Source: Bdellovibrionota bacterium (GTDB taxonomy: Bacteria > Bdellovibrionota_C > UBA2361 > JAFLCA01). From it: DNA of 64,000 nucleotides. The stretch covers positions 435,556 to 499,555 of the forward strand of contig CP129486.1 of the NCBI GenBank assembly GCA_030584005.1. Reading direction: 5' to 3'. The notes beneath the pieces were generated by a model, which saw only the letters and a list, made by a program, of their open reading frames with translations, was not told the DNA's origin and did not search any database. A program made the translations under genes and the position numbers. Below are positions 9,351-31,725 of the stretch, one piece after another. Numbering within the stretch: position 1 is the first letter of the stretch; every line of letters begins with the position of its first letter.

Positions 9351-10682
9351 ATGCTCTCACTCTTGAAGCAGTTTTATTGGAACGGGGGTCCTAACACGCC
9401 TTCCGTCGCAACTGTTCTATTCGGTTTATCCTGTAACGTCTTCCGCCTTGTACTTACCTTCCTCACAACAATTGTTGTCGCTCGATATTTAGGGGCCAAC
9501 GACTATGGGGTACTTGCGATCATTCTGGCCTATACATACCCGTTTATATACCTCCTGACTCTTGGTTTCGACAATGCGCTTCCAACTTTGGTTGAGCGGT
9601 GGCAGAGAAATGGCATTGGGGATGTTGCAGATCTTAAATTTCAGGTGGCTTGTTTAGTAGGATTTTGCGTATTTGCGATCCTTTTTATTACCGGACTGGC
9701 AATTGAGTTGAATGTGGTTCCACAAGTAATTGCCTCGCACCAAATCGTGACATATCTGCTCATGGCACAAGCGGGAGCATGGGCATTCGGAAGTATCTTC
9801 AACGGTGTCTTAAGAAGTCGCAATTTGATTGTTCCAGGTATTCTGCGAGAACACGTGATATTTCCTGTGTTCCACTTGCTACTTTCAGCTATCGCTTTGT
9901 CGTGGCTACACGGTGGGTTGCATGCCTATGCATCAGCATATCTTCTCAGCACCACCTTTGCTTCGGCTATTCTTTTCTTTATAGCGCTGAAAAACGACGC
10001 CATCCAAATGCGCTCACTGAATAAGTTGTCTCGAACAATTCGAACTGTTCAAGAAGTCATTCCCCTCTCAGCCATGGCCGCTCTCGATATGCTCATCTCT
10101 TCAGTGAGTATTATGGTTCTAGCCAACTATGTATCGCATCAAGAAGTAGCGACTTTCGCAATTGGGTTGCGCGTGTGTCAGTTAACTCAGATTGCTGCCG
10201 TTTCAGTTTCTCCATACATCGCGGTGCAACTCCTCAATCAATTTAAAAACCAAGTTATCATCCACCCACTGACGCACATCCGTTCTCCTCTCATTGTCGG
10301 AGCGTTAGGGGCAGCTGTTACAGCCACGCTGCTCATTGTTCTGGAACCTTGGGTCTGGTGGATCTTTGGTCTTTCTACGGCTTCTGCCCCAATGTTACTT
10401 CCTATACTCCTACTGGGATTCATTTCGGAGGCATGCAATCTTATTCTTCGCCAAGTGCTAGTTGCCACAGGGTCTAATCGCATCAATTTGGTCAGTTCTA
10501 TAGTAGGGGTGTTCTGCACTCTATTACTGACGACCATATTGTGTCCCACCTATGGATTAATTGGAGCTGCAATTGCCCTTGCGGTTGCTACTTTGGTTGC
10601 AATGCTCATGCGGGTAAGAGCAATCTTGGATCTCCCTCAGCTCTCGGGACAGTCTAAGAGTGCGGCTATTTCTAAACTTTAG
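9351..10682 (+). CDS. Wzx-like polysaccharide flippase (MOP superfamily)
   Basis: 443 aa, ~12 TM segments, N-terminal ...TTIVVARYLGANDYGVLAI... flippase signature. Confidence 0.6.
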   Translation: MLSLLKQFYWNGGPNTPSVATVLFGLSCNVFRLVLTFLTTIVVARYLGANDYGVLAIILAYTYPFIYLLTLGFDNALPTLVERWQRNGIGDVADLKFQVACLVGFCVFAILFITGLAIELNVVPQVIASHQIVTYLLMAQAGAWAFGSIFNGVLRSRNLIVPGILREHVIFPVFHLLLSAIALSWLHGGLHAYASAYLLSTTFASAILFFIALKNDAIQMRSLNKLSRTIRTVQEVIPLSAMAALDMLISSVSIMVLANYVSHQEVATFAIGLRVCQLTQIAAVSVSPYIAVQLLNQFKNQVIIHPLTHIRSPLIVGALGAAVTATLLIVLEPWVWWIFGLSTASAPMLLPILLLGFISEACNLILRQVLVATGSNRINLVSSIVGVFCTLLLTTILCPTYGLIGAAIALAVATLVAMLMRVRAILDLPQLSGQSKSAAISKL

Positions 10683-10772
10683 CTTTAGGACTCGTCTCTA
10701 CAATTGTCCATAGGAATCATAGAAGAGATTTAAAATTGTTTGGAGTACATTTGATTACACTGTCCAGCCCCC

Positions 10773-11546
10773 TTAATTTGTACCAGTTCTAATTAGAGAT
10801 TTCTCCTTTTGTTGATGTTTAAGCTTTCGAGCCAGGAGAGCTGGAGGCAGACCGACTACTCCATGGGGTCTCTCGAAATTGTATTCATGTTTCCATCGTG
10901 TCACCTTTCGTTGCGCATCTGAGATGGAGGAGAAGATCTCTTCGTTGAGGAGCTCATCTCTGACTCGTCCGTTAAACGCTTCGATGAAGGCATTCTGCTG
11001 CGGCTTTCCTGGTTGAATGGTGATGTGGCAGACGCCTCGCTTTGCGCACCAACGCTCAAATTCAGCGCCCTGGAACTCAGGCCCGCCATCGGTTCTGATA
11101 AAGCGCGGAAATCCGCGAAACGTCGCCACTGCATCGAGTCTCTCAACAAGCTTCCACCCAGGGATAGACGTATCAGCATAGAGCTCCAGACACTCCCGGG
11201 AGGCGTCATCGATGAGCGTCAAGAGCCGAAGTGCTCTGCCCGAGGACAAGGCATCACTCATAAAGTCCACTGACCAGCAGTCGTTTACCCATTCGGCAAC
11301 CACCATCTGCGCTCTCTGAACCACCTGCTTCCTGCGCCTCTTTCTCCTTATCTGAAGCTTCTCTTCGCGGTATATCCGTGCCACCCGTTTATGGTTCACC
11401 TGCCACCCAGAGTGCCTTAGCCTTCGGTAAATCATCCGATAGCCAGCTCGCCGGTACTTCTTTGCGAGGAGAATAATCTTCGCCCGAAGCCTCTCGTTCC
11501 TGTCACGCTGCCGCCGGTACCGAAGAAGTGTCCTCGATGCCCCCAC
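10773..11546 (-). CDS. IS3-family transposase OrfB (DDE integrase core)
   Basis: GTG-initiated 257-aa ORF; rve-like core (WSVDFMSD...LIDDASRE...[10 protein letters not shown]...) ; frame open ~100 nt further upstream overlapping orfA end. Confidence 0.85.
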
Positions 11547-11613
11547 CAGTGCCGCTGCCCGACGCTCAGAGAGGTTCTTCTCTTTACGAAGAAACTCAAC
11601 CGCTCGCCTCCGC

Positions 11614-11883
11614 TCATCGGGCGTCGCTGTATTTTTCGAGGAGCGCCTTTAACGCATCAATATCAAGCTCTTTATCAGCTACTATCTTCTTGAGCTTGCG
11701 GTTCTCTTCCTCGAGGCCTCTAAGCTTCCGAAGATCAAGGGCTGTCATCCCCTCGTACCTCTTCCGCCAGTTGTAGTAGGTCGCGTCGCTTATCCCGTAC
11801 CGCCTACATACCACAGCCACTTCTCCCTTCTGCGCCTCAGAAAGAATCCGAACTATCTGCTCTTCACTGTATCGTTTCTTCAT
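11614..11883 (-). CDS. IS3-family transposase OrfA (HTH + leucine zipper)
   Basis: [14 protein letters not shown]...[15 protein letters not shown]; heptad leucines in C-terminal half. Confidence 0.85.
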
Positions 11884-11953
11884 GGTTTCTCCTTTTACCA
11901 GAGAAACCTCTACTACAAACTGGTATTAATCTAGGGGCTCACAGCCATGGGAC

Positions 11954-12292
11954 TTGAGCACAGTGGACCGAGAGATGATAGTCCGGGCGTACCGCCTTCT
12001 AGGCAGCGAACTTGCCCGACTCCGGCTCGGGTTTATGCGTATCGAAAAAAACTTTGAAGCGCTGTTCCCCAACGAAGTTTGGGGTGGATGTCACCATATG
12101 GGCACTACCCGTATGAGTAGCTCAGCAGCGACCGGAGTCGTCGATCGTAATTGTAGGGTTCACGGAATGGAAAACCTCTTCATCGCTGGGAGCTCTGTTT
12201 TCTCAACAAGCGGAGCGGCGAACCCTACCCTAACCATTGTTGCCCTCTCAATTCGTCTCGCAGCTCACCTATCGAGTAAGTTATCAAATTGA
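11954..12292 (+). pseudogene. GMC-family oxidoreductase, C-terminal 112-aa remnant abutting IS copy 1
   Basis: GGCHHMGTTRM...RVHGMENLFIAGSSVFSTSGAANPTLTIVAL matches GMC_oxred_C; no N-terminal FAD-binding portion found on either side of the IS. Confidence 0.7.
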
Positions 12293-12663
12293 AAAGATGC
12301 CTTATGTCCTCACGTCGAGAGTTTCTTGGAGACACGCTTCCCACGCTGGCCTTTGCCGCCATCGCAAGCACACTGCCTGGCTGCGCAGGGAATATACCTG
12401 CCGCGCAGTTACAATCAGTGCTCATGCGAATTCAGGGCACAGCTCCTATTGGAAAAGCTTACTTGCAAGCGGTTGCGGACGAAGCGCATATCCCAGTTCT
12501 GGAAGCAGCCTTTCTCTCCACGGATCATCGAAGCGTTCTTACTCACATTCGAGACCTAATAAATCAAGATTACCTAGATGACAGGCTCATAATAGTTGAG
12601 GGTTGGCTTATGTCGAGAACAGAGGCAAGACTTGCTGCGCTGTCCTACCTTTGCTTCTCCTGA
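12289..12663 (+). CDS. Tat-signal small protein, possibly small-subunit partner of the GMC oxidoreductase
   Basis: SRREFLG twin-arginine motif, hydrophobic region, LPGCAG lipobox-like; start overlaps upstream stop. Confidence 0.45.
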   Translation: MKRCLMSSRREFLGDTLPTLAFAAIASTLPGCAGNIPAAQLQSVLMRIQGTAPIGKAYLQAVADEAHIPVLEAAFLSTDHRSVLTHIRDLINQDYLDDRLIIVEGWLMSRTEARLAALSYLCFS

Positions 12664-12689
12664 GGTGAATGTAGCTAGCGTTCCAGCGA

Positions 12690-14663
12690 TCACGTTACAT
12701 CCTGTCCGATCACTCCGGATGACTTTGAGTCCGGGATAGAAGGCGGACCAAGAAATGTCCGGAAGAATTTCCGCAGTTTGTCATTAATCTCGACCGTCGA
12801 CTGGCATATGGAAATTTCAGCCTCCAGTGTCCTCACTTGTGCAAGCATTCGAGTTTGCATTCGCTGCGAGCGAACTTCCAGAATCTTTGGTAAACTGCTC
12901 TGCGCCATAGACTCGTCATCACTGAACAGTTTCTCGTGTAGCCTCTCCCCAGGACGGATGCCGATATACTTAATCTCGATTTCAGGACGATTCGCGACCT
13001 CCAACATACGACGCGCTAGATCAACCAATCGAATCGGCGCACCCATGTCTAGCACAAAAAGGGAACATTGCTTGGAAATGGTTAGAGAATTAAGAACCAA
13101 CGAAACAGCCTCTGGAACGGACATAAAGTATCTCGTCATCTGAGGATCGGTGACTGTAACTGGACCGCCTCTTAGAATTTGCTGTCGAAACGTTGGTACT
13201 ACACTTCCCGTACTTCCAACAACATTACCAAACCGTACAATTGTTGTTTCGGTTTGGATGGTGGTACCGCCGGGTTCGGTTAGCTCTTGGACCAGGGCCT
13301 CTGCAGCTTTTTTCGTAGCTCCAAGGACATTACAGGGCTCAACTGCCTTATCTGAGCTAATCAAAAGGTAGCGTTGAGCACCAGCCCTCTGCGCGGCCGT
13401 CAGGGTATTGATCGTTCCAAGGACATTCACCTTGAAAGCTTCGAAGGGATTCGCCTCTGTCAACGGAACATGCTTCAAAGCCGCAGCATGAATCACTACA
13501 TCCTGGTTGCCTCCAAAGACCCGCTGCAATCCTCCTTCATCACAGACATCGCACAAAGAGTAAGTCGTTGGATAACCAAGCCTCAATGAGTCTAACTCTT
13601 GTTTCAAATTAAAAAGATTCAACTCACAGTTATCGATTAGGAGAAGAGACGAAATATCTAATGGCGCGATCTGTCGGACGATCTCTGACCCGATCGAACC
13701 GCCTGCTCCAGTCACTACGATTTTCTTTCCGCGTAAATACTCAGTTACAGCTGCAACACTTTCAGCATGTTCCATACGCTCGAAAAGCTGTTCCATGGGG
13801 ACATTAACGCGGTCTCCATCTCCCGCGAGAACGAGAGATTGTTGAAATGCTATTTGGTCAAGCGAGTCGATTCGGATCAGACTTCTTCCGAGCTCCTTGC
13901 ATACGCGTTGAATCTCAAACATCCGATCAAGCCCCATGGTGGGAATGGCGACGATTACGGCCTTGGCTGTTGGGTCCGATCGAAGCAACTCCGGGAGCAA
14001 GTCAAAGCCTCCCAGGACTGGGATTGTGTGAACGAGCGTCCCGTGTAGTTGCGGATTAGTGTCAAGAACAGCGATTGGAAAAAATCTTGAACTGGTCTGC
14101 GAGCGCAACATGCGGACTAGCGAGCGGCCCGTTGACCCTGCACCCAAAACGACCGCTCGATGAATTGACCCATATTCCTTGGGCTTAACCTTTGGAGTTC
14201 GTTCAAACAGTCGACGCGCTGTCAACCGAAAGCCGCCCGCGATAGCCAAGGAGAGCAACAGCTCGATCAATACTACCGAGCGCGGGAACCCCTCTATGCG
14301 CAAAAAAAGAGCAACTCCAGGGAAGAATAGGCTACTCCAAAAGTGTGCTTTGCATAACGAGAGCGCATCATCTGCTGAGAAGTATCGCCAAGGAAGCCTA
14401 GGAATTCGGAAGTACAGATAAAAGAGGGCGCGCAGTGCAAGTAACCCGAGAATCCCTCGAAGTAAATCGAGTTCTGCGGGGAACTGAGAGAAGTTAAACT
14501 CAAGCCTCAACCCTATCGCTAGTAGGTAGCTTATAGCGGTGAGCGGGATCAGCAAGACCAGTTCGCGCAGATAGGCAACCTTGCGACTTTTAAAGGATCG
14601 TTTGAGCGCTAGTACCTCTCGCTTAAACCAACCTATGATTTTGTTAAATAGCACCGCGATCAT
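12690..14663 (-). CDS. CapD/WbpM/PglF-like membrane-anchored nucleotide-sugar 4,6-dehydratase/epimerase
   Basis: 657 aa; N-terminal TM segments, two Rossmann regions incl. VTGAGGSIGSEIVRQI; typical Polysacc_synt_2 architecture. Confidence 0.8.
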   Translation of the reverse strand: MIAVLFNKIIGWFKREVLALKRSFKSRKVAYLRELVLLIPLTAISYLLAIGLRLEFNFSQFPAELDLLRGILGLLALRALFYLYFRIPRLPWRYFSADDALSLCKAHFWSSLFFPGVALFLRIEGFPRSVVLIELLLSLAIAGGFRLTARRLFERTPKVKPKEYGSIHRAVVLGAGSTGRSLVRMLRSQTSSRFFPIAVLDTNPQLHGTLVHTIPVLGGFDLLPELLRSDPTAKAVIVAIPTMGLDRMFEIQRVCKELGRSLIRIDSLDQIAFQQSLVLAGDGDRVNVPMEQLFERMEHAESVAAVTEYLRGKKIVVTGAGGSIGSEIVRQIAPLDISSLLLIDNCELNLFNLKQELDSLRLGYPTTYSLCDVCDEGGLQRVFGGNQDVVIHAAALKHVPLTEANPFEAFKVNVLGTINTLTAAQRAGAQRYLLISSDKAVEPCNVLGATKKAAEALVQELTEPGGTTIQTETTIVRFGNVVGSTGSVVPTFRQQILRGGPVTVTDPQMTRYFMSVPEAVSLVLNSLTISKQCSLFVLDMGAPIRLVDLARRMLEVANRPEIEIKYIGIRPGERLHEKLFSDDESMAQSSLPKILEVRSQRMQTRMLAQVRTLEAEISICQSTVEINDKLRKFFRTFLGPPSIPDSKSSGVIGQDVT

Positions 14664-14800
14664 TGAGTTCGAGTATATTGGTTAAACTATCGGGGTGAAA
14701 CTAGTAACCTCGTCACCTATGGATTCTTCTGGCAAATAGCTCTATCCTGGACTCCAAAGCGAGCATGATTTCTAACACACCTCTCTACTTGATTTAGAAG

Positions 14801-15694
14801 ATGGCGTCCAAAGTCAGAAAAGCCGTAATCCCCGCTGCTGGTCTCGGCACTCGGTTCTTGCCCGCGACTAAGGCCGTGCCTAAGGAGCTGCTCCCGATTG
14901 TCGATACCCCGACCATTCAGTATATCGTCGAGGAGTGCGCCGGCTCAGGTATTGATACAGTTGTGTTGGTAACTGCCAAGGGTAAGTCACGAATCGTTGA
15001 TCACTTCGACATCTACCCTGAGCTTGAGGAGAAGCTCGACAAGGAGGGGAAGCCAGAGCTCGCCGAAGCCCTGCGCAGAACCAGCAGCATGGTTCGAATG
15101 GTCATGGTTCGACAGGGCACCCCGAGAGGTCTTGGCCACGCCGTACTATGCGCCAAGGAAATTGTGGGTGACGAACCATTTGCCGTGCTGCTCGGTGATG
15201 ATCTCGTAGATGCGAAGACACCATGCCTCAAGCAAATGATCGATGTGTACGAGCGGCACAGAAAGTCGGTCGTCGCGCTTATGGAAGTTGACGAGAGTGA
15301 CGTGAGCAAATTCGGCATTTGCGGCGGTCAAGAGATAGAACCAAGAGTTTTCAATCTGGATGCAATGGTCGAGAAGCCCAAGCTGGAGCAGGCGCCTTCC
15401 CGAACGGCAATTGTCGGACGATATATCCTATCCCCAGCAATTTTCAGGATTCTCGAGAACCAAGCTCCCGGAAAGGGTGGTGAGATTCAGCTCACCGACG
15501 CCATGGCAACATTGATGAGGCAGGAAGGGTTTATAGGTTATCAATTCGAGGGCGATCGCTACGACGCCGGTGACAAATTTGGCTTCTTACAAGCAAATTT
15601 GGCATATGGCTTAAAGCGTCCCGATATCGCGCCTAAATTAATCGATTACATGAAGTCCGTGCTGACACAGCGGGGAGTCATCCGCAATGGCTGA
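14801..15694 (+). CDS. galU: UTP--glucose-1-phosphate uridylyltransferase
   Basis: KAVIPAAGLGTRFLPATKAVPKELLPIVD N-terminal signature. Confidence 0.9.
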   Translation: MASKVRKAVIPAAGLGTRFLPATKAVPKELLPIVDTPTIQYIVEECAGSGIDTVVLVTAKGKSRIVDHFDIYPELEEKLDKEGKPELAEALRRTSSMVRMVMVRQGTPRGLGHAVLCAKEIVGDEPFAVLLGDDLVDAKTPCLKQMIDVYERHRKSVVALMEVDESDVSKFGICGGQEIEPRVFNLDAMVEKPKLEQAPSRTAIVGRYILSPAIFRILENQAPGKGGEIQLTDAMATLMRQEGFIGYQFEGDRYDAGDKFGFLQANLAYGLKRPDIAPKLIDYMKSVLTQRGVIRNG

Positions 15695-15962
15695 TGCGCC
15701 GATATTGAAATGGGTTCCCTACTGGGTCCGAAATTACGGGCAACCCGGGGTCGGTGAACAGCGCGCAGTCCAGGACTTCGTAGATTGCGAAACGATGGAG
15801 GCATGGCGCGGGTTCGAATCCGAGCTCATGGCCATTGCGAGCGGAAGCGTTCCAGAGAAAACCTTGGATGGCCTGGTCGGCGTAGCCAGAAGAGTCAAGT
15901 TTAACTCTTATGAGGAGTGGGCCAAAATGATGGTCGCGTGGCTCGCGAGCTCACGACGGTAG
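15687..15962 (+). CDS. hypothetical protein (91 aa), start overlaps galU stop
   Basis: overlap of 8 nt with galU suggests translational coupling; no recognisable family. Confidence 0.4.
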   Translation: MADAPILKWVPYWVRNYGQPGVGEQRAVQDFVDCETMEAWRGFESELMAIASGSVPEKTLDGLVGVARRVKFNSYEEWAKMMVAWLASSRR

Positions 15963-16512
15963 GTCCGCGCGCACTGCACGCTCTGCCCGATAGCGCCGGC
16001 GACAATCACCCAGCGGCCCGCTTTCCAGGGGACTCAGAATGAACCCAACAGTATAATATCAAAGTTAACGCCCCTACATAAAAGAAGCTCTGGGAGTACG
16101 TAAGGCTTGTAGACAGGACAGTAGAAACGCTCATGATAAGGAAGCTCATAAATGACCGTAGCTTTTCCCCGTCACTCGACCCCAGTAGGGGACCAACAGC
16201 AAAACAGTAAAGAGGTAATCCAACTATTAAGTCAGTCGGCCACGCATGCGGCACAAATAATACTTCTACAACCGTCGAACCTCTCCATCCATAGAACAGA
16301 TCGCGAAGCGGATTACTAACCTACACCGACTGAAACGTAATTACTGAGATGCGCCGCCAAAGATGGAGACAATACTCCAACATACGCCATTGGTTGAGCG
16401 GGCGCCTGTCAGGACTGATATTACTAAGAATAGTACGGGCGCTGACACCAGGAATCGTGTCTAGCCAATAACGATTGCCTGTACAGCTGGTCTTTGTAAG
16501 CCAAGGGGCTAG

Positions 16513-17316
16513 CTATACCTTCTGCCCCTGCTTCGCCAGGAACTCATCATGATTCTTTGAAACTATGTTGAAGGCCTCCTCAGGTCCGCTGGCAATTGTT
16601 ACGCAATCGAAGTCCTTGGCGCTGACGAGCCCGCGCTTGAGCGGGTACTCCTTCATCCAGTGAATAACCCCCTCCCAGAACTCCTTGTCCATCAGCACAA
16701 TAGGACGGGGAGAAATATGCTTTACCTGGATCAGCTGCCAGGTGAAAAAGAGCTCCAAGACGGTACCGATGCCCCCTGGGGTAACTACCACCGAGTGCGA
16801 AAGCCGCATGAAGTCATCCAGTCGCGAGGAAAATTTGTGATGATGCCGCTTCACGTCCAGGTGCTGATTGGGCGTCGGTTCGAACTCCAGCTGGATGGAG
16901 ATGCCATAGGATAAACTTTTGGATTTCTTTTCATCGACCCCAAGCTTGGCACCCTTGTTGGCCGCCTCCATAAGACCCGGACCGCCGCCGGTGAGAATAT
17001 CGATGCCGCGCCACGAAAGCATCCGCGCCAACGTAAAGACATCCTGATATTCCTTTGTGTCCGGCTTAATGCGGGCACTGCCGAAAATGCAGGTGCGGTA
17101 AAACCGGTTCTCGTCGAGACTATGCAGCTCTCGCTCAATTAACATCACCCGCTGATAGAGGAGGCGCAGCCTCTCATCAAGATGCTTGCGCCGCTGGCCA
17201 CGCGAGACCTTGGCAATCTTCGGACGCTTTACTGACTCGCTCTCCGGAACCGCTACTTCCACATGCTTGATGCTTTTGCCCACTGGACTACGAGGGGTTT
17301 TTGACTTCATTTTCAT
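16513..17316 (-). CDS. LOG-family protein (cytokinin riboside 5-prime-monophosphate phosphoribohydrolase-like) with ~80-aa basic N-terminal extension
   Basis: TGGGPGLMEAANKGA and PGGIGTVLELFFTWQL motifs; lysine/arginine-rich N-terminus. Confidence 0.8.
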   Translation of the reverse strand: MKMKSKTPRSPVGKSIKHVEVAVPESESVKRPKIAKVSRGQRRKHLDERLRLLYQRVMLIERELHSLDENRFYRTCIFGSARIKPDTKEYQDVFTLARMLSWRGIDILTGGGPGLMEAANKGAKLGVDEKKSKSLSYGISIQLEFEPTPNQHLDVKRHHHKFSSRLDDFMRLSHSVVVTPGGIGTVLELFFTWQLIQVKHISPRPIVLMDKEFWEGVIHWMKEYPLKRGLVSAKDFDCVTIASGPEEAFNIVSKNHDEFLAKQGQKV

Positions 17317-17369
17317 GATGCGAGCTTACAACGAACTAGCGAAAAAGAGTATCACAGCAAAACATGATG

Positions 17370-17804
17370 CTACCCAGCAATCTTAAGTCGCGGGGGCGCT
17401 GGGATAGTGTCCTGCTCGACCTTGTGGTGATCGTTGGAGGCTGCCGCGACCTCCTGCCGGGAAGAAACCAACTGCTCCCTGATCAGCGATGTCCAACTCT
17501 CCCAACCCGAGAGCTCCGAGCGCTCCGACACCACCTGAGCTAACTCTGCTTCAGAGTCCCCCGGATGGGCGTCGCAGATAGTCTGTAGTGAGGCCTCTAC
17601 AAATCGAATGGCCTTGAGCACATCCGTGAAATGCTCGGGCATAATAGGGGGGGTCGGCGCACGTCGAGTACGCGCTTGAGCCCTTTCAAGCGCCTTACGC
17701 AACTCCGATGCCGCTTGCTCAAGTTCGCACAGCTCCTGTTGGCGCAGATGCGTGTTGTGAAGTCGTGGATTGTGATGCGGGTGGAAGAAGCGGTAAATAT
17801 CCAT
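17370..17804 (-). CDS. hypothetical protein (144 aa)
   Basis: ORF only; helical, charged composition. Confidence 0.35.
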   Translation of the reverse strand: MDIYRFFHPHHNPRLHNTHLRQQELCELEQAASELRKALERAQARTRRAPTPPIMPEHFTDVLKAIRFVEASLQTICDAHPGDSEAELAQVVSERSELSGWESWTSLIREQLVSSRQEVAAASNDHHKVEQDTIPAPPRLKIAG

Positions 17805-17934
17805 TCAGGGCACACCCATACAGCCTTAAGCTATACATGGGGCCCTATCATTCGCTCAAGGGGGAATCTTTACCCGAGTCCCGGGTCAGTATTCCACTCG
17901 GCTTCTTCAGTTTGATCAAGATTCCGGCCAGGCT

Positions 17935-18279
17935 ATGACAACCGCAATTTACGTAATTTGGTTTAGCTTACCCGCCCTCCTGTTCCTCATGGCTCTCTGG
18001 GCCTGGCTCGAAAAACTGAGTGACAAGCATAAGAAGACCCGCCCGGGTGAGCTCTTTAAGCAGGGGGTATTTGTGCTGGTTTGTGCCGGTATCGCTGTGC
18101 TCATCGATAAATACCTACTGGTCGAGGTCGCGGCTGCTATAAACTCGGAGTGGCTACCCCTCACCTTTCTCCAGATCATCCTCCTTCCGATCATCCTGCT
18201 CATTGGGGCTCGCCTATTGGGCCCCTCCGAGAAGATCCTCATCGGCAAGGAGACCAATAAACCGGGGGGACGACGTTAG
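17935..18279 (+). CDS. small membrane protein (114 aa, 3 predicted TM)
   Basis: hydrophobic segments; ends exactly where rnhB starts. Confidence 0.4.
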   Translation: MTTAIYVIWFSLPALLFLMALWAWLEKLSDKHKKTRPGELFKQGVFVLVCAGIAVLIDKYLLVEVAAAINSEWLPLTFLQIILLPIILLIGARLLGPSEKILIGKETNKPGGRR

Positions 18280-18869
18280 TGCGAATCGCAGGGGTAGACG
18301 AGGTTGGAAGAGGCCCCCTTGCTGGTCCCGTGTGCGCCGCGGCCGTGGTACTACCCCCAGGGTACCAAAACTCGTCCATACAGGACTCCAAGAAGCTCAC
18401 TCCCCGCCAAAGAGAGGCTCTGGTGCCAGAGATAAAGCGGATCGCGCTCTCTTGGGCTATCGTCTCCGTTGGTCACCACAGGATCGAATCGCTCAATATT
18501 CGTGAGGCCTCCAGAGTTGCCATGAGCCTAGCTGTGAAGCGGGTCCAGGCCGATTTGGTGCTAGTCGACGGTAATGTTCCAATAGAGGTGCCCATCCCTC
18601 AACGAACCATAGTAGGTGGGGACGCCTCTGTAATTCAGATTAGCGCGGCATCTATCCTTGCCAAGGTTTGGCGTGACCACCTCATGGCAGTCCTGGACGG
18701 TCGATACCCGCAGTATGGCTTCAAGCAGCATGCCGGGTATCCAACAAGCAGTCATCGAGCCGCCATAAGGCTCTACGGACCTTGTAATGTGCACAGAAGA
18801 ACATTTCGAGGCGTCGTCGAGTACCTTGGACTTGCCAGTGCCCCTAATGGGGCCAGCCCGGCCTCTTAG
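18279..18869 (+). CDS. rnhB: ribonuclease HII
   Basis: MRIAGVDEVGRGPLAGPV N-terminal catalytic motif. Confidence 0.9.
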   Translation: MRIAGVDEVGRGPLAGPVCAAAVVLPPGYQNSSIQDSKKLTPRQREALVPEIKRIALSWAIVSVGHHRIESLNIREASRVAMSLAVKRVQADLVLVDGNVPIEVPIPQRTIVGGDASVIQISAASILAKVWRDHLMAVLDGRYPQYGFKQHAGYPTSSHRAAIRLYGPCNVHRRTFRGVVEYLGLASAPNGASPAS

Positions 18870-18938
18870 GCGCTATTTTTTTGAGTAGCTCCTCTAGGGA
18901 AACACCCCCGATGCATCTCCGATAACAAGGATGCCCCC

Positions 18939-19412
18939 GTGTTCTGCCGCACGGCAGGAAACGAGACCCCGGCTATGCTTTCACGGATCCTTTCATCAGC
19001 GCTGCGTCCACGGGCCTTTGTTCGAGCTCTGCGAAGAAGGATACTTGGAGCTCGCGGGGAAAGCTGTGCGTGTGCATACTTGAGGAGGCGCGGATTCCTG
19101 ATCCTGGCCATGAACTGGCGGTGGCGGCGGGGTGAAATTGATATCGTGGCGGGAATTGGCCATCACCTCGTCGCTGTTGAGGTGAAAACGCGGCGGAGGC
19201 TCTGGAATCTGACCACTCAAGAGCTTGTGCGGGAGAGCCAACAGAGAGGCATGAGACACCTTCTAAAGGCCTACCGGAGTCAGCACTCAGCCCTGGTGAG
19301 ACGATTGCTTCTCTGGCACGACAGAGCTGATTTAATCATCATACGGCCCACGACGAACTTGGGTACCGCGTGGCTAAAAGTTACTCATCATCACGAGCAC
19401 TTTTTCTTTTAA
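18939..19412 (+). CDS. yraN: YraN-family (UPF0102) endonuclease-like protein
   Basis: AYLRRRGFLILAMNWR..GEIDIVA....LVAVEVKTRR matches YraN core; conserved rnhB-yraN adjacency; real start probably downstream of 18939. Confidence 0.7.
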   Translation: MFCRTAGNETPAMLSRILSSALRPRAFVRALRRRILGARGESCACAYLRRRGFLILAMNWRWRRGEIDIVAGIGHHLVAVEVKTRRRLWNLTTQELVRESQQRGMRHLLKAYRSQHSALVRRLLLWHDRADLIIIRPTTNLGTAWLKVTHHHEHFFF

Positions 19413-19428
19413 GGCCCAGAGCCAGAAC

Positions 19429-20694
19429 TTACTCCGGAAATGGCTTCACAAGGCGAATAAGCGTCTCTACAGCGGAAACCATCGAGGAAAGGGCGATCCA
19501 TTCTCGCCTTGAGTGAAACAATACCCCCCCTGCAAACAGATTGGGCGTTGGATGCCCGGCCGCGCTAAGCAGGCTGCCATCAGTGCCTCCCCGTATCGGC
19601 ACTTCCTGTAGAGTAAGCCCTGCCCTGCGGATGGCAAACCTCGCACGTTCTACTACCTCAGGGGCCTTATCGAGCACTCCCTTCATGTTCTCATACTGCT
19701 GGCGCGCCTTCATGGTGAGCTTGGCTCCGGGCACACTTTCTTGGAGAAACTGACAGGCCCGATCAAATGCCCTAATCCTCTCCAAGTTCTTCTCTCTTGC
19801 GAAATCACGCAAAATAAAGCTCAAGGTGGCTCGCTCATGATCCCCTTGAATCCCCGTGAGGTGCCAGAACCCTTCACGACCATCGCTGCGCTCGGGGGTA
19901 TCTCCTTGGGGTAGCATGCTCACCAGTCTAGATGCGAGGACCGCTGCATTTATCATCCTTCCTTTGGCATACCCCGGATGCACGCCGACCCCTTCAATCT
20001 GTATGTCGACCGCGTGAGCATCAAAGCACTCCACCTCTAGCGAACCAGGGAGCCCTCCATCAACCGTGTAGCAAGCACGCGGCAACCGAGAAAGGTCGAG
20101 CCCCAATATGCCCCTTCCGATCTCCTCATCATGGGTGAAGCATACTACCAAGTCGGTATGGGGCAGCTTCTTAAACTCAATCAGCGCTGCCACCAGGCTC
20201 ATAATCTCCGCCACACCCGCCTTGTCATCTGCTCCCAGGAGCGTACGTCCCGATGCAGTAATAATCGAGTCACCGATGAACGCGTACAGCTCTGGACAGG
20301 TTTCCTTGGTCAGCCGCAGCTCCGCATCTTCAGGAAACAGGATAGCACTGCCATCCCAGTCCCGGTGCACCTGAGGCTTCACTCCATCACCGGGCTGATC
20401 GGGCGACGTATCAACATGCGCCAATAACCCAATCGCCTCGCCCCGGCTACGCCCTGCCAGACGGGCATATAAATATCCGTACTGGTCTCGAAACACATCG
20501 GTAAGCCCCATACCCTTGAGCTCTCTTTCGAGCTGCTCGACCAGCTCGAGTTGGCATGCTGAGGAGGGATTCGAGGAGGAATTCGGATCCGAAGTGGTAT
20601 GAATCTGAACATACTCCAGGAATCTGCGCTCTACATCCGCAGCGATAAAGGAGCGCAGTTCCGCTGGCAGATCAGATCTCGATAGGCTGCTCAT
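19429..20694 (-). CDS. pepT: peptidase T (M20B tripeptide aminopeptidase)
   Basis: 421 aa; HVDTSPD and downstream M20 blocks. Confidence 0.8.
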   Translation of the reverse strand: MSSLSRSDLPAELRSFIAADVERRFLEYVQIHTTSDPNSSSNPSSACQLELVEQLERELKGMGLTDVFRDQYGYLYARLAGRSRGEAIGLLAHVDTSPDQPGDGVKPQVHRDWDGSAILFPEDAELRLTKETCPELYAFIGDSIITASGRTLLGADDKAGVAEIMSLVAALIEFKKLPHTDLVVCFTHDEEIGRGILGLDLSRLPRACYTVDGGLPGSLEVECFDAHAVDIQIEGVGVHPGYAKGRMINAAVLASRLVSMLPQGDTPERSDGREGFWHLTGIQGDHERATLSFILRDFAREKNLERIRAFDRACQFLQESVPGAKLTMKARQQYENMKGVLDKAPEVVERARFAIRRAGLTLQEVPIRGGTDGSLLSAAGHPTPNLFAGGVLFHSRREWIALSSMVSAVETLIRLVKPFPE

Positions 20695-20738
20695 AGGGAA
20701 ACCTCAATAGTTAGCTGCACCGTTACAGTGCACCAAGT

Positions 20739-23591
20739 TCATGGCGCGGGGGCACTACTCTTTGTCGATAGCTGCACGGCCGATTTACGGGCTGCTGCAT
20801 TTGCCAGAAGTTCCTGTACCTTCTCTAAAAGCTTCGAAGTCTTGAATGGTTTCTGCAAGAAGTCACTTAGAGGGTGCGGAGCCGCGTGCACGTTCTCTGT
20901 AGAGAATCCGGACATCAGAAGCAGGGGGATATCCCCGAAGGCCTGCCGCAGATCCTCTGCAAACTGCATTCCCGTCCGATGCGGCATCACGATGTCGCTT
21001 ACAATCAAAGCAAACTTCTGCGGATTGCTCTTTACAATCGAAAAGGCCTCGTCTACCGATGCCGCCTGCATCGTAGTGAAGCCGTGGGCGTTAAGGATCT
21101 CGGCTGTGCCCTGTCGTACAAGAGGTTCATCATCTAAGACGAGAATACACTCTCCGCTGCCTTGGAACACCGCCTCATTCGACTCCTCCACCCGTGTCGC
21201 ATCTCGGAAGGCCGGCAGGTATACGGCAAAAGTAGTTCCTACACCCTCTTCGGATTCCACACGAATAAAGCCGTGCGCCTGCGTTACTATTCCGTAAGCA
21301 ACAGGCAGTCCTAATCCGGTTCCGCGTCCCGCCGGTTTCGTCGTAAAGAAAGGCTCGAACAGTTTTGGCCGTACCGAGGATGGAATACCCTGCCCCGTGT
21401 CGCACACTTCGAACACCACGTAATCGCCCGCTGGTGCCTGGTCATTCCCGAGTCCTTCTGAACCATCCAGGCGCCGTTCCGATGCCCGTATGGTGAGCGT
21501 TCCTCCATGAGGCATGGCATCTATTGCGTTCAGAGCCAAATTCAACAGGACCTGCTGTAACTGGTTCGGGTCAATCAGTACCGATGGGCAATCCGAAGGG
21601 ACAGAGGTATGGAACTCGATGTTGTTCTTGACGATGGAATGAACCAGGCTGGCGAGATCGTCAATCGCCTCACTGGCCGAGAGCAGCTGCGGGTCTACTT
21701 GCTGCTTGCGTCCAAAGGTAAGGAGCTGCTGAGTTAGAGCGGACGCACGAGCAACTGCTGTTGAGATGTTCTGTACATGCCGCTCCTCTAACGGACGCCC
21801 TCCTGAGTCTCGAATCAGCCGAGAAAGCAGATCGGCATTCGCCCCGATAACCGTGAGCACGTTATTGAAGTCATGCGCCACGCCTCCGGCGAGCTGTCCC
21901 AAGGCCTCCACTCGCTGCACATGCTCGAGTTGGCGTCGCAGCTCCGCCTCTCTCTCCCGCGCCTGCACCTCATTAGTTATCTCAAGGGCCAGCCCACCAA
22001 TGTACTTTTTGCCATGCTTGTCACGAACCAGGAACTTCACGGTCATGAACACAAGAGCACCTTTATCCGTCGGTATCTCCTCCGTCACCACTATCGACTC
22101 GCCCGTGTCGAGCACATGATTATCATTGCGCGTAAACTGTTCGGCCGCCCCAGGCCACAGCTCCGCATCGGTACGCCCTACCACGTTGCTTGCAGCAAAA
22201 TGAAAGCGCTTCAAGAATGCCGTGTTCGTATACAGGTGTCGGCCAACGGAGTCCTTGATGAAGGCGATAACGGGACTATGATCCATAAACCGGTGGAATC
22301 TCTCCTCGCTTTCTTTCAGGGCGTCCTGAGCTTCTTTCTCACGGGTTACATCCTGCACGATCCCCACTACAACACCCACCGTCCCATCTGCTTCAATGAC
22401 GGGAGCCGTGTGCGCATACAGCCAGCGCTCGGATCCGTCCGCAGCACTGACTCTGAATCGAAAGCCATCGGGATCAGGTTCAGTGGGATTGAGCATTTTC
22501 TGTACGACGGACTCACGATCTTCGGGGGCGATTCGCCTCTGCCATGCGTCGGGGTGCACTGCCAGCTCGTCCGAACTGAAAGAGAACAAACGTTCAAAGC
22601 CAGAGCTCACGTAGGAGAAGGTGTTACTTTCCGCTGAGGCCACAAATAGCCCGTGTTCCAAGTAGCGGCCCAATGTCGTCAGAAAGCGATCCCGCTCGAT
22701 GAGCCTTTGCCCCAATTGCCGGCGTTCGACCACTAACGCAGCTAGCAAATGAGTGGTGATGCTGGCTACGATAAGAAACCCCTGTTCCCAAACAATCGCC
22801 AGGGTTGGATGAAGGGGCACACCTGCGGAGCCGCGTGACCCGAGTATGAGTCCTAAAGATATAGACATCCCGATCAACACGACCGAGATGGCAGTCGCAA
22901 ACGTTCCGACTCGCCAGGCTGCCCAAATTACAAAGGGGAGTAGACTCATGGTGACGAACACGGAGGCTGAATGCTCTGCGATTAAGCCAGCAAAGAGTAG
23001 GCTCGCTAGCCCCGCTACCCCGAAAAGACATAGCAATGCTTCGGAGAGGCGGACATCAAAAAGGTCCTGCTCAGCACGCAGCCTCGAAACAAGGACATGC
23101 GTCACGGGACCTGCGACGAGCACACCGGTTAATGTCCCGAATAACCAGTGTTGAAAGAAGTGGACACCCTGATAGTCCAGGGCAAAGCCTTTTGTGTAGA
23201 TCGTCGAAAGCGTCGCCGAGACGAGAGACGCTGCGAGCCCAGATCCAATGCTGAAATAAAGAACATGCTGGGGCTTTGAGAAGCTGAACGATTTGCCGCG
23301 TAACAGGGCGCGCACAATGAGAACGCCAACTATTCCTTCGATGATTGTGATGAGGGTATATACAACTGCCGTCGGAACGGATTGCCCCTCGACGAGATTC
23401 CCAAGGATGTTGGAGCAGGCGAGTGCCAAGCATATGAGCCACCAGATGTGCTTTGCGTGCAGAAGCAAAAGTGCCCCAAACACTCCGCTTGGCAGCCACA
23501 GGAGGGCAATATGTTCTGAAGGAATTACCGTTAATGCGCTCCATAGCGCACTCACAAGGAAAAGAACCGAGGCCCCGAGGAAGAGCCGCAC
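20739..23591 (-). CDS. hybrid sensor histidine kinase/response regulator (MASE1 membrane domain, PAS x2, HisKA, HATPase, REC)
   Basis: 950 aa; N-terminal multi-TM MASE1-like; H-box VAHDFNNVLTVI; G-boxes; C-terminal ILVLDDEPLV...DIVMP receiver. Confidence 0.85.
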   Translation of the reverse strand: MRLFLGASVLFLVSALWSALTVIPSEHIALLWLPSGVFGALLLLHAKHIWWLICLALACSNILGNLVEGQSVPTAVVYTLITIIEGIVGVLIVRALLRGKSFSFSKPQHVLYFSIGSGLAASLVSATLSTIYTKGFALDYQGVHFFQHWLFGTLTGVLVAGPVTHVLVSRLRAEQDLFDVRLSEALLCLFGVAGLASLLFAGLIAEHSASVFVTMSLLPFVIWAAWRVGTFATAISVVLIGMSISLGLILGSRGSAGVPLHPTLAIVWEQGFLIVASITTHLLAALVVERRQLGQRLIERDRFLTTLGRYLEHGLFVASAESNTFSYVSSGFERLFSFSSDELAVHPDAWQRRIAPEDRESVVQKMLNPTEPDPDGFRFRVSAADGSERWLYAHTAPVIEADGTVGVVVGIVQDVTREKEAQDALKESEERFHRFMDHSPVIAFIKDSVGRHLYTNTAFLKRFHFAASNVVGRTDAELWPGAAEQFTRNDNHVLDTGESIVVTEEIPTDKGALVFMTVKFLVRDKHGKKYIGGLALEITNEVQAREREAELRRQLEHVQRVEALGQLAGGVAHDFNNVLTVIGANADLLSRLIRDSGGRPLEERHVQNISTAVARASALTQQLLTFGRKQQVDPQLLSASEAIDDLASLVHSIVKNNIEFHTSVPSDCPSVLIDPNQLQQVLLNLALNAIDAMPHGGTLTIRASERRLDGSEGLGNDQAPAGDYVVFEVCDTGQGIPSSVRPKLFEPFFTTKPAGRGTGLGLPVAYGIVTQAHGFIRVESEEGVGTTFAVYLPAFRDATRVEESNEAVFQGSGECILVLDDEPLVRQGTAEILNAHGFTTMQAASVDEAFSIVKSNPQKFALIVSDIVMPHRTGMQFAEDLRQAFGDIPLLLMSGFSTENVHAAPHPLSDFLQKPFKTSKLLEKVQELLANAAARKSAVQLSTKSSAPAP

Positions 23592-23667
23592 TTGTGCTTG
23601 GGGGGGCTGTGAGCCCCTAGATTAATACCAGTTTGTAGTAGAGGTTTCTCTGGTAAAAGGAGAAACC

Positions 23668-23937
23668 ATGAAGAAACGATACAGTGAAGAGCAGATAGTT
23701 CGGATTCTTTCTGAGGCGCAGAAGGGAGAAGTGGCTGTGGTATGTAGGCGGTACGGGATAAGCGACGCGACCTACTACAACTGGCGGAAGAGGTACGAGG
23801 GGATGACGGCGCTTGATCTTCGGAAGCTTAAAAGCCTCGAGGAAGAGAACCGCAAGCTCAAGAAGATAGTAGCTGATAAGGAGCTTGATATTGATGCGTT
23901 AAAGGCGCTTCTCGAAAAATACAGCGACGCCCGATGA
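23668..23937 (+). CDS. IS3-family transposase OrfA
   Basis: identical to copy 1 except R/K, G/S substitutions. Confidence 0.85.
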
Positions 23938-24004
23938 GCGGAGGCGAGCGGTTGAGTTTCTTCGTAAAGAGAAGAACCTCTCTGAGCGTCGGGCAGCGAC
24001 ACTG

Positions 24005-24778
24005 GTGGGGGCATCGAGGACACTTCTTCGGTACCGGCGGCAGCGTGACAGGAACGAGAGGCTTCGGGCTAAGATTATTCTCCTCGCAAAGAAGTACCGG
24101 CGAGCTGGCTATCGGATGATTTACCGAAGGCTAAGGCACTCCGGGTGGCAGGTGAACCATAAACGGGTGGCACGGATATACCGCGAAGAGAAGCTTCAGA
24201 TAAGGAGAAAGAGGCGCAGGAAGCAGGTGGTTCAGAGAGCGCAGATGGTGGTTGCCGAATGGGTAAACGACTGCTGGTCAGTGGACTTTATGAGTGATGC
24301 CTTGTCCTCGGGCAGAGCACTTCGGCTCTTGACGCTCATCGATGACGCCTCCCGGGAGTGTCTGGAGCTCTATGCTGATACGTCTATCCCTGGGTGGAAG
24401 CTTGTTGAGAGACTCGATGCAGTGGCGACGTTTCGCGGATTTCCGCGCTTTATCAGAACCGATGGCGGGCCTGAGTTCCAGGGCGCTGAATTTGAGCGTT
24501 GGTGCGCAAAGCGAGGCGTCTGCCACATCACCATTCAACCAGGAAAGCCGCAGCAGAATGCCTTCATCGAAGCGTTTAACGGACGAGTCAGAGATGAGCT
24601 CCTCAACGAAGAGATCTTCTCCTCCATCTCAGATGCGCAACGAAAGGTGACACGATGGAAACATGAATACAATTTCGAGAGACCCCATGGAGTAGTCGGT
24701 CTGCCTCCAGCTCTCCTGGCTCGAAAGCTTAAACATCAACAAAAGGAGAAATCTCTAATTAGAACTGGTACAAATTAA
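24005..24778 (+). CDS. IS3-family transposase OrfB
   Basis: identical to copy 1 OrfB; frame 2 open from 23903, i.e. +1 relative to orfA. Confidence 0.85.
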
Positions 24779-25038
24779 GGGGGCTGGACAGGGGGAGGGA
24801 CGTTCAAATGATGTCGGATATGGAAGCGCCACTATTGCTGCTCTCCCGTAAAAGCTTTGACGAAGGCCGCTGGATTGTACCCTAGCTCGAACGTAACGTT
24901 AACCAGTGCATGCCGCGGGGACAGTGCTCGGAATTACTCGCTCATTCGGATCTTGCAAAGTCGTTCGAAAAGGCACACCACATCAGCTTCTTGGGCAGGT
25001 CATAAGAATAGCCCGAAAATCGAAATAACGATACAAGA

Positions 25039-27450: not shown

Positions 27451-27461
27451 GAGGTTGTGAC

Positions 27462-28505
27462 CTAGATGGAGCGGAATTGGGAAGCAAATCTCAGATCCCC
27501 TGAGCGCAAATGACGGATATCCTCGATGCCATGTCGCATCATCAGCAGGCGATCTACCCCGAGTCCAAAGGCGAATCCGGAGTACTCCTCAGGATTGATA
27601 CCACCATTGGTAAGCACACGCGGATGCACCAGTCCGGCACCGAGGAGTTCAACCCATCCAGAGTAACCACAAACAGGGCACCCCTTCTCGGCGCACATTA
27701 AACACTTCATATCGATTTCCAGTCCTGGTTCGACGAACGGGAAATAACTCGGACGGGTGCGCACCTCGACCGTATGATGAAAAAGGCTCGAGTAGAGCTG
27801 TTGGGCGAAGTATATCAAATGGGCGATGCTAATATTCCTGTCGACAAGCATCCCCTCGAATTGAAAGAAGGTCATTTCATGGGATGCATCAGTGCGCTCG
27901 CAACGAAACACACTGCCCGGGCCGACAAATCGGAATGGGGGCTTTCTGGATTCCATGCCCCGGATCTGAATGCAGCTTGTGTGGGTGCGGAGCACATGCT
28001 GATTGTCGTGGAACCAGAAGGTGTCTTGCATGTCGCGGGCCGGATGGTCGCGAGAGACATTGAGGGCTTCAAAGTTGTGCCAATCATCTTCGATGTGTGG
28101 GCCATCGAGCACATCGAATCCCATGTAGAGGAAAATATCCTCGAGTTCACGCAAAATAGAAACCAAAGGGTGGTAGCCTGCTGATTTGAGCCCGCCTTCA
28201 AGAATGGAATCCCGGAGGCCCAGATCTACACGACCCCCTAATAGTTCCTTATTCACTCTTGCCTTGACGGCTTGCTGCAAACGTTCCTCGATCAATAACT
28301 CGGCCTTTGTTTTGGCCTGATTGACCTCGGCGCCAAAACTGCGCTTCTGATCAGGAGGCAGGTCCTTCAGGAGTTTGAGCTGCTGCGATATCTTGCCATC
28401 TTTGCCGATGAAATTTGCCTTTACTTTCAAGACCTCGGGCTCGCTGCTGGCCTGAGCAAGTGCTGTGCTTAATTCCTTCAGGATGGAGTCTAGAGACTGG
28501 CTCAT
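27462..28505 (-). CDS. pheS: phenylalanine--tRNA ligase alpha subunit
   Basis: class II aaRS motifs; table ORF extends to 28799 but PheS-length start is the ATG at 28505 (MSQSLDSILKEL...). Confidence 0.85.
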   Translation of the reverse strand: MSQSLDSILKELSTALAQASSEPEVLKVKANFIGKDGKISQQLKLLKDLPPDQKRSFGAEVNQAKTKAELLIEERLQQAVKARVNKELLGGRVDLGLRDSILEGGLKSAGYHPLVSILRELEDIFLYMGFDVLDGPHIEDDWHNFEALNVSRDHPARDMQDTFWFHDNQHVLRTHTSCIQIRGMESRKPPFRFVGPGSVFRCERTDASHEMTFFQFEGMLVDRNISIAHLIYFAQQLYSSLFHHTVEVRTRPSYFPFVEPGLEIDMKCLMCAEKGCPVCGYSGWVELLGAGLVHPRVLTNGGINPEEYSGFAFGLGVDRLLMMRHGIEDIRHLRSGDLRFASQFRSI

Positions 28506-28841
28506 AAACCTAGGGGAGAATTCAGTGCTTATGACCACAAGCAATAGCAGATCGGAGCGCCTCTCAGCAATTTCTAGAGCGCATCCGGAAATGCCCTCTA
28601 GTGTACTGTTCATTGGACTCCGGACTCCCTGTCCTGCGTCGAATTCGCTCCAAGCTCTGCTGGGCGGACCCCGAGAAGCCCAGCTCCGCGTCGCTCCAGC
28701 CGCTTCGCGGCTGCCTGGCCACCCCTGGCCGGCTAGTTTCCTGAGACTCGACTTATTTACGAAACTCATTGACTCGGGCGAAGACGGTTGAACCGACAAG
28801 AGCTGCGAAATAAAATCAAGGGCAGCGGGCTGTTCAGCAAT

Positions 28842-28942: not shown

Positions 28943-29060
28943 AAAGTCCCAGCAACTTCCTACTTTCGCGGGAAATCCCACTATCATCGGCTCTAGAGGG
29001 CTTAACGACCGTGTTCGGTATGGGAACGGGTGTGGCCCCTCCGAAATAATCACCAGGGCT
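28943..29060 (-). rRNA. rrf: 5S ribosomal RNA
   Basis: reverse complement reads GCCCTGGTGATTATTTCGGAGGGGCCACACCCGTTCCCATACCGAACACGG...GGGAC, canonical 5S. Confidence 0.9.
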
Positions 29061-29797: not shown

Positions 29798-29830
<33 letters not shown>

Positions 29831-29946
29831 GTTCCGGACATAGCTACCCAGCTGTGCCACTGGCGTGACAACTGGTGCACCATAGGTCCGTTCACTTCGG
29901 CCCTCTCGTACTAGAAGTAACTCTCCTCAAATCTCCTACGGCCACG

Positions 29947-30005
<59 letters not shown>

Positions 30006-30036
30006 TGGCGAACAGCCAAACCCTTGGGACCTACTC

Positions 30037-30091
<55 letters not shown>

Positions 30092-30108
30092 GACTCGTGG
30101 GGGAGATA

Positions 30109-30147
<39 letters not shown>

Positions 30148-31678: not shown

Positions 31679-31725
<47 letters not shown>

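Follow-up and report, generated by a model that had tools for sequence, protein, structure and literature searches.

Two inverted copies of an IS3-family element

We analysed a stretch of 64,000 nucleotides from a Bdellovibrionota bacterium (GenBank assembly GCA_030584005.1, contig CP129486.1, positions 435,556 to 499,555 of the forward strand), which is called the window below. Two copies of one insertion sequence (IS) of the IS3 family lie in it in inverted orientation and bracket an 11.7-kb segment. A polysaccharide cluster of low G+C content (GC) lies to the left of copy 1. The segment opens with the 3' remnant of a GMC-family oxidoreductase gene and closes with the body of a large hybrid sensor kinase gene, and pheT and pheS follow to the right of copy 2. 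The original prediction, made from the sequence of the window, described the arrangement as resembling a composite transposon or as an IS-mediated inversion. The two copies and the genes of copy 1 are located as follows.

10761..11946, minus strand: IS copy 1, the older copy, 1186 bp, with the orfB end (TGTCCAGCCCCC...) pointing outward and the orfA end (...GGGGCTCACAGCC) pointing inward
11614..11883, minus strand: orfA of copy 1, 89 amino acids, HTH_Tnp_1
10773..11546, minus strand: orfB of copy 1, with HTH_21, rve and rve_3, its frame open upstream to 11648
23605..24790, plus strand: IS copy 2, the younger copy, 1186 bp, with orfA at 23668-23937 and orfB at 24005-24778, missing from two related strains

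A repeat search over 9-27 kb returned a sole inverted pair, with arms of 1187 nt at 10760-11946 and 23605-24791 and a spacing of 11658 nt. Base-by-base comparison of the arms showed 9 mismatches (99.2% identity), all within element positions 204-538; the outer 203 nt and the last 649 nt were without any difference. Each terminal motif occurred twice in the window and was absent from shuffled sequence. The orfA ends of both copies point inward and the orfB ends outward. In each copy, orfA encodes a protein of 89 amino acids with an HTH_Tnp_1 domain (Pfam, 74 bits), and orfB encodes one of 257 amino acids with HTH_21, rve and rve_3 domains (Pfam). The two frames overlap at 11614-11648 in copy 1. 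A conceptual OrfAB fusion matched the NCBIfam model NF033516, 'IS3 family transposase', with 250 bits (cut-off 160) over model positions 1-361 of 369, which together with the repeat search confirms the predicted pair of inverted IS3-family copies.

IS3-family elements in general have imperfect terminal repeats of the form TG...CA and duplicate 3-5 bp of their target. The ends of the present element were compared among seven copies, namely the two in the window and five on metagenome contigs of the Logan assemblies (L001-L005). Logan contigs of the IS stop at the repeat boundary and thus leave the two flanks of one copy unlinked. Directly outside the orfA-side TG, all seven copies carried GGC, and the base preceding GGC was variable. 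Relatives of about 1277 bp from Joint Genome Institute (JGI) metagenomes have 13-nt termini, TGACCTGAGCCCC. Aligned with these on the common core TGAGCCCC, the orfA-side terminus of our element is GGCTGTGAGCCCC and starts with GG. The orfA-side end is GGC followed by TGTGAGCCCC; homology with the 13-nt repeat of the relatives places the terminus at GG, and the constant GGC is the counterpart of the first bases of that repeat. At the other end, the orfB-side terminus TGTCCAGCCCCC is the canonical ...GGACA on the top strand, and the relative L102 (82% identical) has the same ...GGACA end. With the ends assigned in this way, the element is 1186 bp long, with copy 1 at 10761-11946 (minus strand) and copy 2 at 23605-24790 (plus strand); the length of 1184 bp given originally does not agree with the constancy of GGC in all seven copies.

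Among 58 complete relatives, six showed a target duplication, and it measured 4 bp in all six (chance expectation 0.2). A duplication of this length is a trait of the IS407 subgroup in ISfinder. Judged by its terminal repeat and by the 4-bp duplication, the element is a small IS3-family member of the IS407-like type. The closest annotated elements in the plasmid collection were about 44-46% identical, for example ISRle4 of Rhizobium (44% amino-acid identity). With less than 50% identity to every plasmid-borne element, ours is, by this comparison, an unnamed one. Five subgroups have been listed for the IS3 family (PMC7371123).

The unoccupied site of copy 2 and the interrupted kinase gene

Copy 2 lies between the kinase gene and pheT, and the features around it are the following.

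20739..23591, minus strand: body of the MASE1-PAS-PAS-HisKA-HATPase-REC hybrid kinase gene, 950 codons, separated from its 5' end
23601..23604: left half of the target duplication of copy 2, GGGG, from the empty-allele comparison
24791..24794: right half of the target duplication of copy 2, GGGG, from the empty-allele comparison
24792..24832, minus strand: orphaned first 13 kinase codons (VALPYPTSFERPS) of the 967-codon open reading frame (ORF) called in the uninterrupted allele
24874..24902, minus strand: promoter-like site TTAACG-17-TACAAT pointing at the kinase gene, a consensus match only, with the IS now in between
25039..28799, minus strand: pheT and pheS, contiguous with the kinase gene where copy 2 is missing

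Contigs of the same population in public runs were located by exact-protein look-up. Two of them, from independent samples, had no copy 2: SRR16693997_45985 (L091/L097, 19,466 bp) and SRR10807626_68342 (L098), which were 99.4-99.5% identical to the window. Both showed pheS, pheT, a 207-bp spacer, the MASE1 kinase gene (967 amino acids), pepT, yraN and rnhB onward, arranged and oriented as in the window, and the IS was missing between pheT and the kinase gene. Their uninterrupted junction, CCCTCCCCCCAAGCAC, reads GAACGTCCCT-CCCCCC-AAGCACAAG, and in the window the IS separates ...CCCT-CCCCC from CCCCC-AAGCAC. The run of six G in the empty allele corresponds to 5+5-4, which gives a 4-bp duplication, GGGG, at copy 2. 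This duplication was overlooked in the original prediction because the G-run merges with the initial GG of the element; the statement that neither copy has an evident target duplication therefore fails for copy 2, and it holds for copy 1, as described below. As judged from these junctions, copy 2 is a clean simple insertion. Since the contigs without copy 2 have the same gene order, the 11.7-kb segment was in place in its present orientation before copy 2 arrived.

These observations bear directly on an IS-mediated inversion, in which recombination between the inverted copies would have flipped the segment and the present orientation would be derived. Being inverted, 99.2% identical and separated by 11.7 kb, the copies form a competent substrate, and copy 1 has no duplication. 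However, the strains without copy 2 already have the kinase gene beside pheT and the GMC remnant beside copy 1. In addition, both halves of the duplication are still found at copy 2, whereas an inversion would have sent one of them to copy 1. Swapped pairings of the flanks between the copies do not match either, and polysaccharide genes lie on both sides of copy 1. We therefore regard an inversion as very improbable. The flanks indeed do not pair up, as had been noted, but this is no sign of an exchange between the copies: copy 1 has lost one of its original flanks, and none was swapped.

A composite transposon, in which the two copies and the 11.7 kb between them moved in as a unit, has in its favour that the segment lies between inverted copies of one IS, as is the case for Tn10 and Tn5. 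However, the segment is found at the same place with one IS only, no duplication surrounds the unit (ACAC on the left against GGGG on the right), and no second site was seen. Furthermore, the cargo is of housekeeping type, its local synteny is kept in distant relatives, and its GC of 53-56% resembles that of the downstream chromosome. The empty site of copy 2 and its clean 4-bp duplication refute both this model and the inversion as originally proposed, and we assign the composite transposon almost no probability. The same holds for an assembly artefact. Misassemblies typically arise at repeats of this length (1.2 kb), and an assembler may duplicate or misplace a single IS; however, the two copies differ at nine positions, and all four junctions in the window were recovered in independent short-read (Logan) assemblies.

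Precise excision between 4-bp repeats is rare. If copy 2 were ancestral and had been excised precisely in the lineages of L097 and L098, exactly the empty allele seen would be left behind. Excision would then be needed in the lineage that has also retained two extra genes which the window strain has lost, and we consider it very unlikely; even if it were true, the argument about orientation would be the same. The reading that very probably accounts for the locus is that one IS3-family element inserted twice, independently and at separate times, into resident chromosome, with no net inversion.

Copy 2 is inserted in codon 14 of the 967-codon kinase ORF. The start assigned to this ORF in the uninterrupted allele is a GTG, equivalent to position 24832 of the window, which follows a GGAG-containing stretch. 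The 13 orphaned codons now read into the IS and then reach a stop. The remaining body of 950 codons starts at a GTG 13 nt from the end of the IS and has no recognisable ribosome-binding site; the MASE1 domain is complete within the 950 amino acids. No outward promoter was found in the orfA end of the IS (23450-23800), the only candidate being the displaced native-looking site at 24902-24874. From the sequence of these junctions, the copy 2 allele of the kinase gene is probably null or strongly altered in expression.

All nine differences between the two copies fall within 335 nt, for which P would be about 3e-4 had they been spread uniformly. Five of the alleles of copy 2 are also present in L003 and L005, copies that look mosaic themselves. 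The donor of copy 2 was thus probably not copy 1 but a different copy, or else tracts were exchanged between the copies by gene conversion. As a separate observation, the variants among the window pair and L001-L005 are mosaic as a whole, which suggests gene conversion or recombination between copies.

Copy 1, the GMC remnant and the resident segment

Copy 1 is flanked by a polysaccharide gene outside the segment and by the truncated GMC gene inside it.

9351..10682, plus strand: Wzx-like polysaccharide flippase, Pfam Polysacc_synt, intact-looking, its stop 78 bp from the IS
11947..12292, plus strand: 3' remnant of a GMC-family oxidoreductase gene, GMC_oxred_C, about 115 of about 540 codons, cut exactly at the IS end
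12289..12663, plus strand: small protein with a twin-arginine-like signal (SRREFL), its start overlapping the GMC stop

The flippase gene is the last gene of the low-GC polysaccharide cluster to the left of copy 1, and the upstream cluster genes were also seen in L007. The match of the GMC remnant to the Pfam model is limited to the last ~65 positions, and its reading frame stays open as far as the boundary with the IS; an identical product of 105 amino acids is annotated in an NCBI metagenome-assembled genome of Bdellovibrionota. The gene was thus correctly described as a C-terminal remnant, and its N-terminal part indeed lies on neither side, where 78 bp and the Wzx-like gene (left) or, to the right of copy 2, 247 bp and pheT are found instead. 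Within the 64-kb window, the search for the missing N-terminus was negative, both by Pfam on the large ORFs of 29-64 kb and in a six-frame scan with PROSITE-type GMC and FAD motifs. The small protein that follows the remnant gave no match in a family search and is presumed to be a partner subunit of the lost dehydrogenase.

The flanks of copy 1 read ..TTACAC outside and ATGG.. inside (CCAT and GTGT in element orientation), and no target duplication was obtained under any end model. In the contig without copy 2, the first 29 nt belong to the orfA end of the IS, and the GMC remnant follows directly. The outer junction between the Wzx-like gene and the IS was present in three samples, including both samples without copy 2 (L008, L009), and the junction between the GMC remnant and the IS was present in six runs (SRR16693997, SRR24881069, SRR10807626, SRR34646263, DRR779145 and SRR25316600). 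Because strains without copy 2 already carry copy 1, copy 1 is the older of the two.

A gene cut at the IS terminus together with a lost duplication points to an IS-adjacent deletion, or to recombination with a directly oriented copy, since lost, by which the intervening DNA was removed. IS copies that have no duplication owing to adjacent deletion or IS-IS recombination are documented and frequent (PMC11708052). The proposal of recombination with adjacent deletion thus offers the best reading of the copy-1 junction, though not of the segment as a whole.

A homologue search with the GMC fragment (117 amino acids as query) listed the identical fragment of 105 amino acids and then matches at 58% identity or less; it gave no intact allele, which is weak evidence of absence, since the at least 120 homologues listed were all of at most 203 amino acids even though GMC enzymes of full length are common. 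With so short a query, the word-based search seems to favour short proteins, and negative conclusions from it carry less weight for that reason.

The step in composition at copy 1 suggests another origin for this junction. The cluster to the left of copy 1 has a GC of 44-50%; on the right side the values are 49-51% and, further on, 53-56%. Copy 1 could accordingly be one boundary of a polysaccharide locus that was replaced horizontally, with the cluster of low GC imported along with the IS or recombined at it. The rise from 44-46% immediately to the left through 49-51% to 53-56% is consistent with this, polysaccharide loci are commonly exchanged, and a further strain-specific insertion or deletion of membrane-protein genes lies in the same region. 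However, neither a donor sequence nor a second boundary was found, the junction was identical in all samples, and a flank lost exactly at the IS end is the same signature that a plain adjacent deletion leaves. We consider such a replacement the less likely explanation, though one with appreciable probability.

The remaining genes of the segment are as follows.

12690..14663, minus strand: CapD/WbpM-like membrane-anchored sugar 4,6-dehydratase, Polysacc_synt_2
14801..15694, plus strand: galU, TIGR01099, 353.7 bits (cut-off 326.8)
15963..16279: scar of a strain-specific loss, where related strains have 1865 + 937 extra bp
16513..19412: LOG-type (Lysine_decarbox) gene, two hypothetical genes, rnhB and yraN, by Pfam/NCBIfam
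19429..20694, minus strand: pepT, NF003976, 439.6 bits (cut-off 255)

The predicted cargo was confirmed. The galU, rnhB and pepT products scored above the NCBIfam equivalog cut-offs, and YraN/UPF0102, the LOG-type Lysine_decarbox protein and the MASE1-PAS-HisKA-HATPase-REC kinase above the Pfam cut-offs. Polysaccharide genes flank copy 1, with the Wzx-like gene outside and the capD-like gene and galU inside the segment, whose composition (53-56% GC) is like that of the downstream chromosome. The closest GTDB species representatives, found with the LOG protein as query and compared over 10-kb flanks, were 65-71% identical and had the yraN-rnhB-hypothetical-hypothetical-LOG core in common. As they share the order of this core only, they are uninformative on either IS junction. 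The cargo is native, because this synteny is kept at 65-71% identity. One Logan contig, L010, consists of the whole segment with 29 nt of the IS at each end.

According to the explanation that we favour, copy 1 inserted first; it lies between the low-GC polysaccharide cluster and the GMC remnant and is seen in every population sampled. It would then have lost one original flank, including the 5' part of the GMC gene and half of its target duplication, for which an IS-adjacent deletion is a likely cause, as is recombination with a directly oriented copy that has since disappeared. Later, copy 2 inserted by the normal IS3-family route in the opposite orientation, duplicating GGGG within the run of six G and parting the kinase body from its start codon, ribosome-binding site and putative promoter. 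The bracketing by inverted copies is thus a coincidence of two insertions, and the segment was not imported as a unit.

Several points weigh against this account. Short-read contigs stop inside the 1.2-kb IS and cannot phase the orientation of the segment in strains with two copies, so that some cells may carry it flipped, or it may have flipped back and forth in the past. A flipping subpopulation that re-wires expression of the kinase gene is, in our estimate, highly unlikely. At copy 1, neither an unoccupied site nor an intact GMC gene was seen in any genome, and the deletion is read from its signature alone; a full-length GMC allele may have escaped the search, which returned only proteins of at most 203 amino acids. 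Finally, the GGGG duplication sits in a homopolymer and, taken by itself, could be due to chance (about 1/256); the empty allele makes it convincing.

Some further features of the region were noted. The DNA missing at 15963-16279, in comparison with L097 11526-14640, encodes two polytopic membrane proteins (507 and 403 amino acids) with no Pfam match. Only a 313-bp remnant is left, and the loss is a strain-level one adjoining galU and the polysaccharide genes. A second LOG-type (Lysine_decarbox/SLOG) gene, a paralogue of that in the segment, lies at 53400-54173 (plus strand). An ORF of 155 amino acids at 47392-47859 (minus strand) matches the C-terminal third only of the Pterin_bind (dihydropteroate synthase) model and is possibly another truncated gene. 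The ribosomal RNA operon adjoins pheS at 28947-36865 (minus strand), and its 23S gene spans 4822 nt compared to the 2925-nt model. This gene contains an Rfam group I intron match at 30988-31364 and LAGLIDADG endonuclease ORFs at 30307-30948 and 31734-32189, and it probably carries two intron insertions.

The transposase frame and comparison with known systems

The reading frames of the element differ from the usual arrangement at one short motif.

11631..11637, minus strand (copy 1), and 23914-23920 (copy 2): GAAAAAT motif at the overlap of the orfA and orfB frames, with orfB in +1 (= -2) relative to orfA

An orfB in the -1 frame, reached by programmed -1 frameshifting, is typical of the IS3 family and not strictly defining, and exceptions to it exist (PMC6211511). 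In all seven copies of our element orfA is in frame 1 and orfB in frame 2, so that orfB is in +1 (= -2) and not in -1. The same +1 frame was found in five relatives, with OrfB identities of 85% (L102), 70% (L182), 65% (L183), 67% (L184) and 60% (L185), all of which carry an invariant GAAAAATAC at the overlap; the -1 frame was found in 72 of 76 relatives at 43-50% identity. The peptide KNT(A/G/V)(T/K)PDERR in the orfB frame is conserved from the A-run onward. In L184, a TAG directly precedes AAA AAT. Because this TAG is in the orfB frame, the shift is confined to at most 24 nt between it and the orfA stop.

The motif allows for more than one route to a fusion protein. A lysyl-tRNA on the AAA of GAA-AAA-T could re-pair perfectly two bases back, and a 1-nt deletion by RNA polymerase could also yield the fusion. 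Candidate modes are thus a shift of the ribosome by -2 (or +1) and the loss of 1 nt on the A5 run during transcription. A homopolymer sequencing error was considered and rejected, as A5 is present in Illumina-based contigs of at least six samples and in the five diverged relatives. A search for a stimulatory RNA structure near the motif was negative in a single-sequence fold (z = 0.04). A consensus of six sequences gave a positive covariation term and one compensatory pair, with no supported structure. We tentatively suggest, as a possibility with less than even chances, that a clade of at least six distinct elements, 60-100% identical and from unrelated metagenomes, makes OrfAB by conserved non-canonical recoding at GAAAAAT. 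According to a review of 2016, no IS element with +1 ribosomal frameshifting had been identified, and cases were known in which transcriptional realignment leads to +1 (PMC5009743); in IS1447-type elements the slippage takes place on A7-A9 (PMC6211511). Because copy 2 is recent, the element appears to be active in its +1-frame form, unless its transposase came in trans from another copy. The frame is a lead rather than a result, possibly to an undescribed recoding mode for an IS3-family transposase, and as such it may interest researchers on recoding. Apart from this, at 1380-1500 of L183 a related IS end (...GGGGGCTGGACA) abuts the frameshift region (GCTCCTCGAAAAATACGG...) of another related copy, a nested insertion of one IS into another near the recoding motif.

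As submitted, the finding is of little weight, being ordinary IS biology in a poorly sampled lineage. It illustrates in textbook manner that one IS, by inserting twice without any connection between the two events, can produce what looks like a composite transposon or an inversion, and that a homopolymer can hide a target duplication. It also gives a micro-history of an uncultured Bdellovibrionota population, in which a gene was lost long ago, in connection with an IS, where a surface-polysaccharide locus ends, and a more recent, strain-specific insertion probably disabled or re-wired a MASE1 hybrid sensor kinase. The inverted pair is now a substrate for future RecA-mediated inversion.

Comparison with characterized elements showed that ours shares with ISRle4 and other IS407-like elements an OrfA with HTH_Tnp_1 (89 amino acids here), an overlapping OrfB with HTH_21 and rve, related terminal repeats, a 4-bp duplication and a size of about 1.2 kb. 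It is about 90 bp shorter than the relatives of about 1277 bp, and it differs from usual IS3 members in having orfB in +1 instead of -1 and, as judged by homology with the relatives, GG instead of TG at the orfA-side terminus. ISRle4 itself has orfB in the usual -1 frame and ends in TGACC...GGTCA. A two-frame transposase joined at a short A-run is also known from the IS1447 subgroup (PMC6211511) and from the Roseiflexus IS630 (cited in PMC5009743). However, slippage in those systems is transcriptional and takes place on A7-A9, or on T5C5 together with a nascent hairpin, whereas our element has A5, a +1/-2 shift and no supported structure.

At the level of the locus, copy 1 resembles the IS-adjacent deletions of Ngan et al. 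2024 (PMC11708052) in that the duplication is missing and the adjacent gene breaks off precisely where the IS ends. The IS-bounded inversions of IS481 in Bordetella and of the E. coli long-term evolution lines likewise involve inverted homologous copies as a potential substrate. In our case, however, the ancestral state with a single IS has the same orientation, and copy 2 retains both halves of its duplication. Tn10 and Tn5 similarly consist of inverted copies of one IS around a DNA segment, as opposed to the present locus, where no duplication surrounds the unit, the housekeeping cargo occupies the site also when a single IS is present, and nothing indicates that the unit ever moved.

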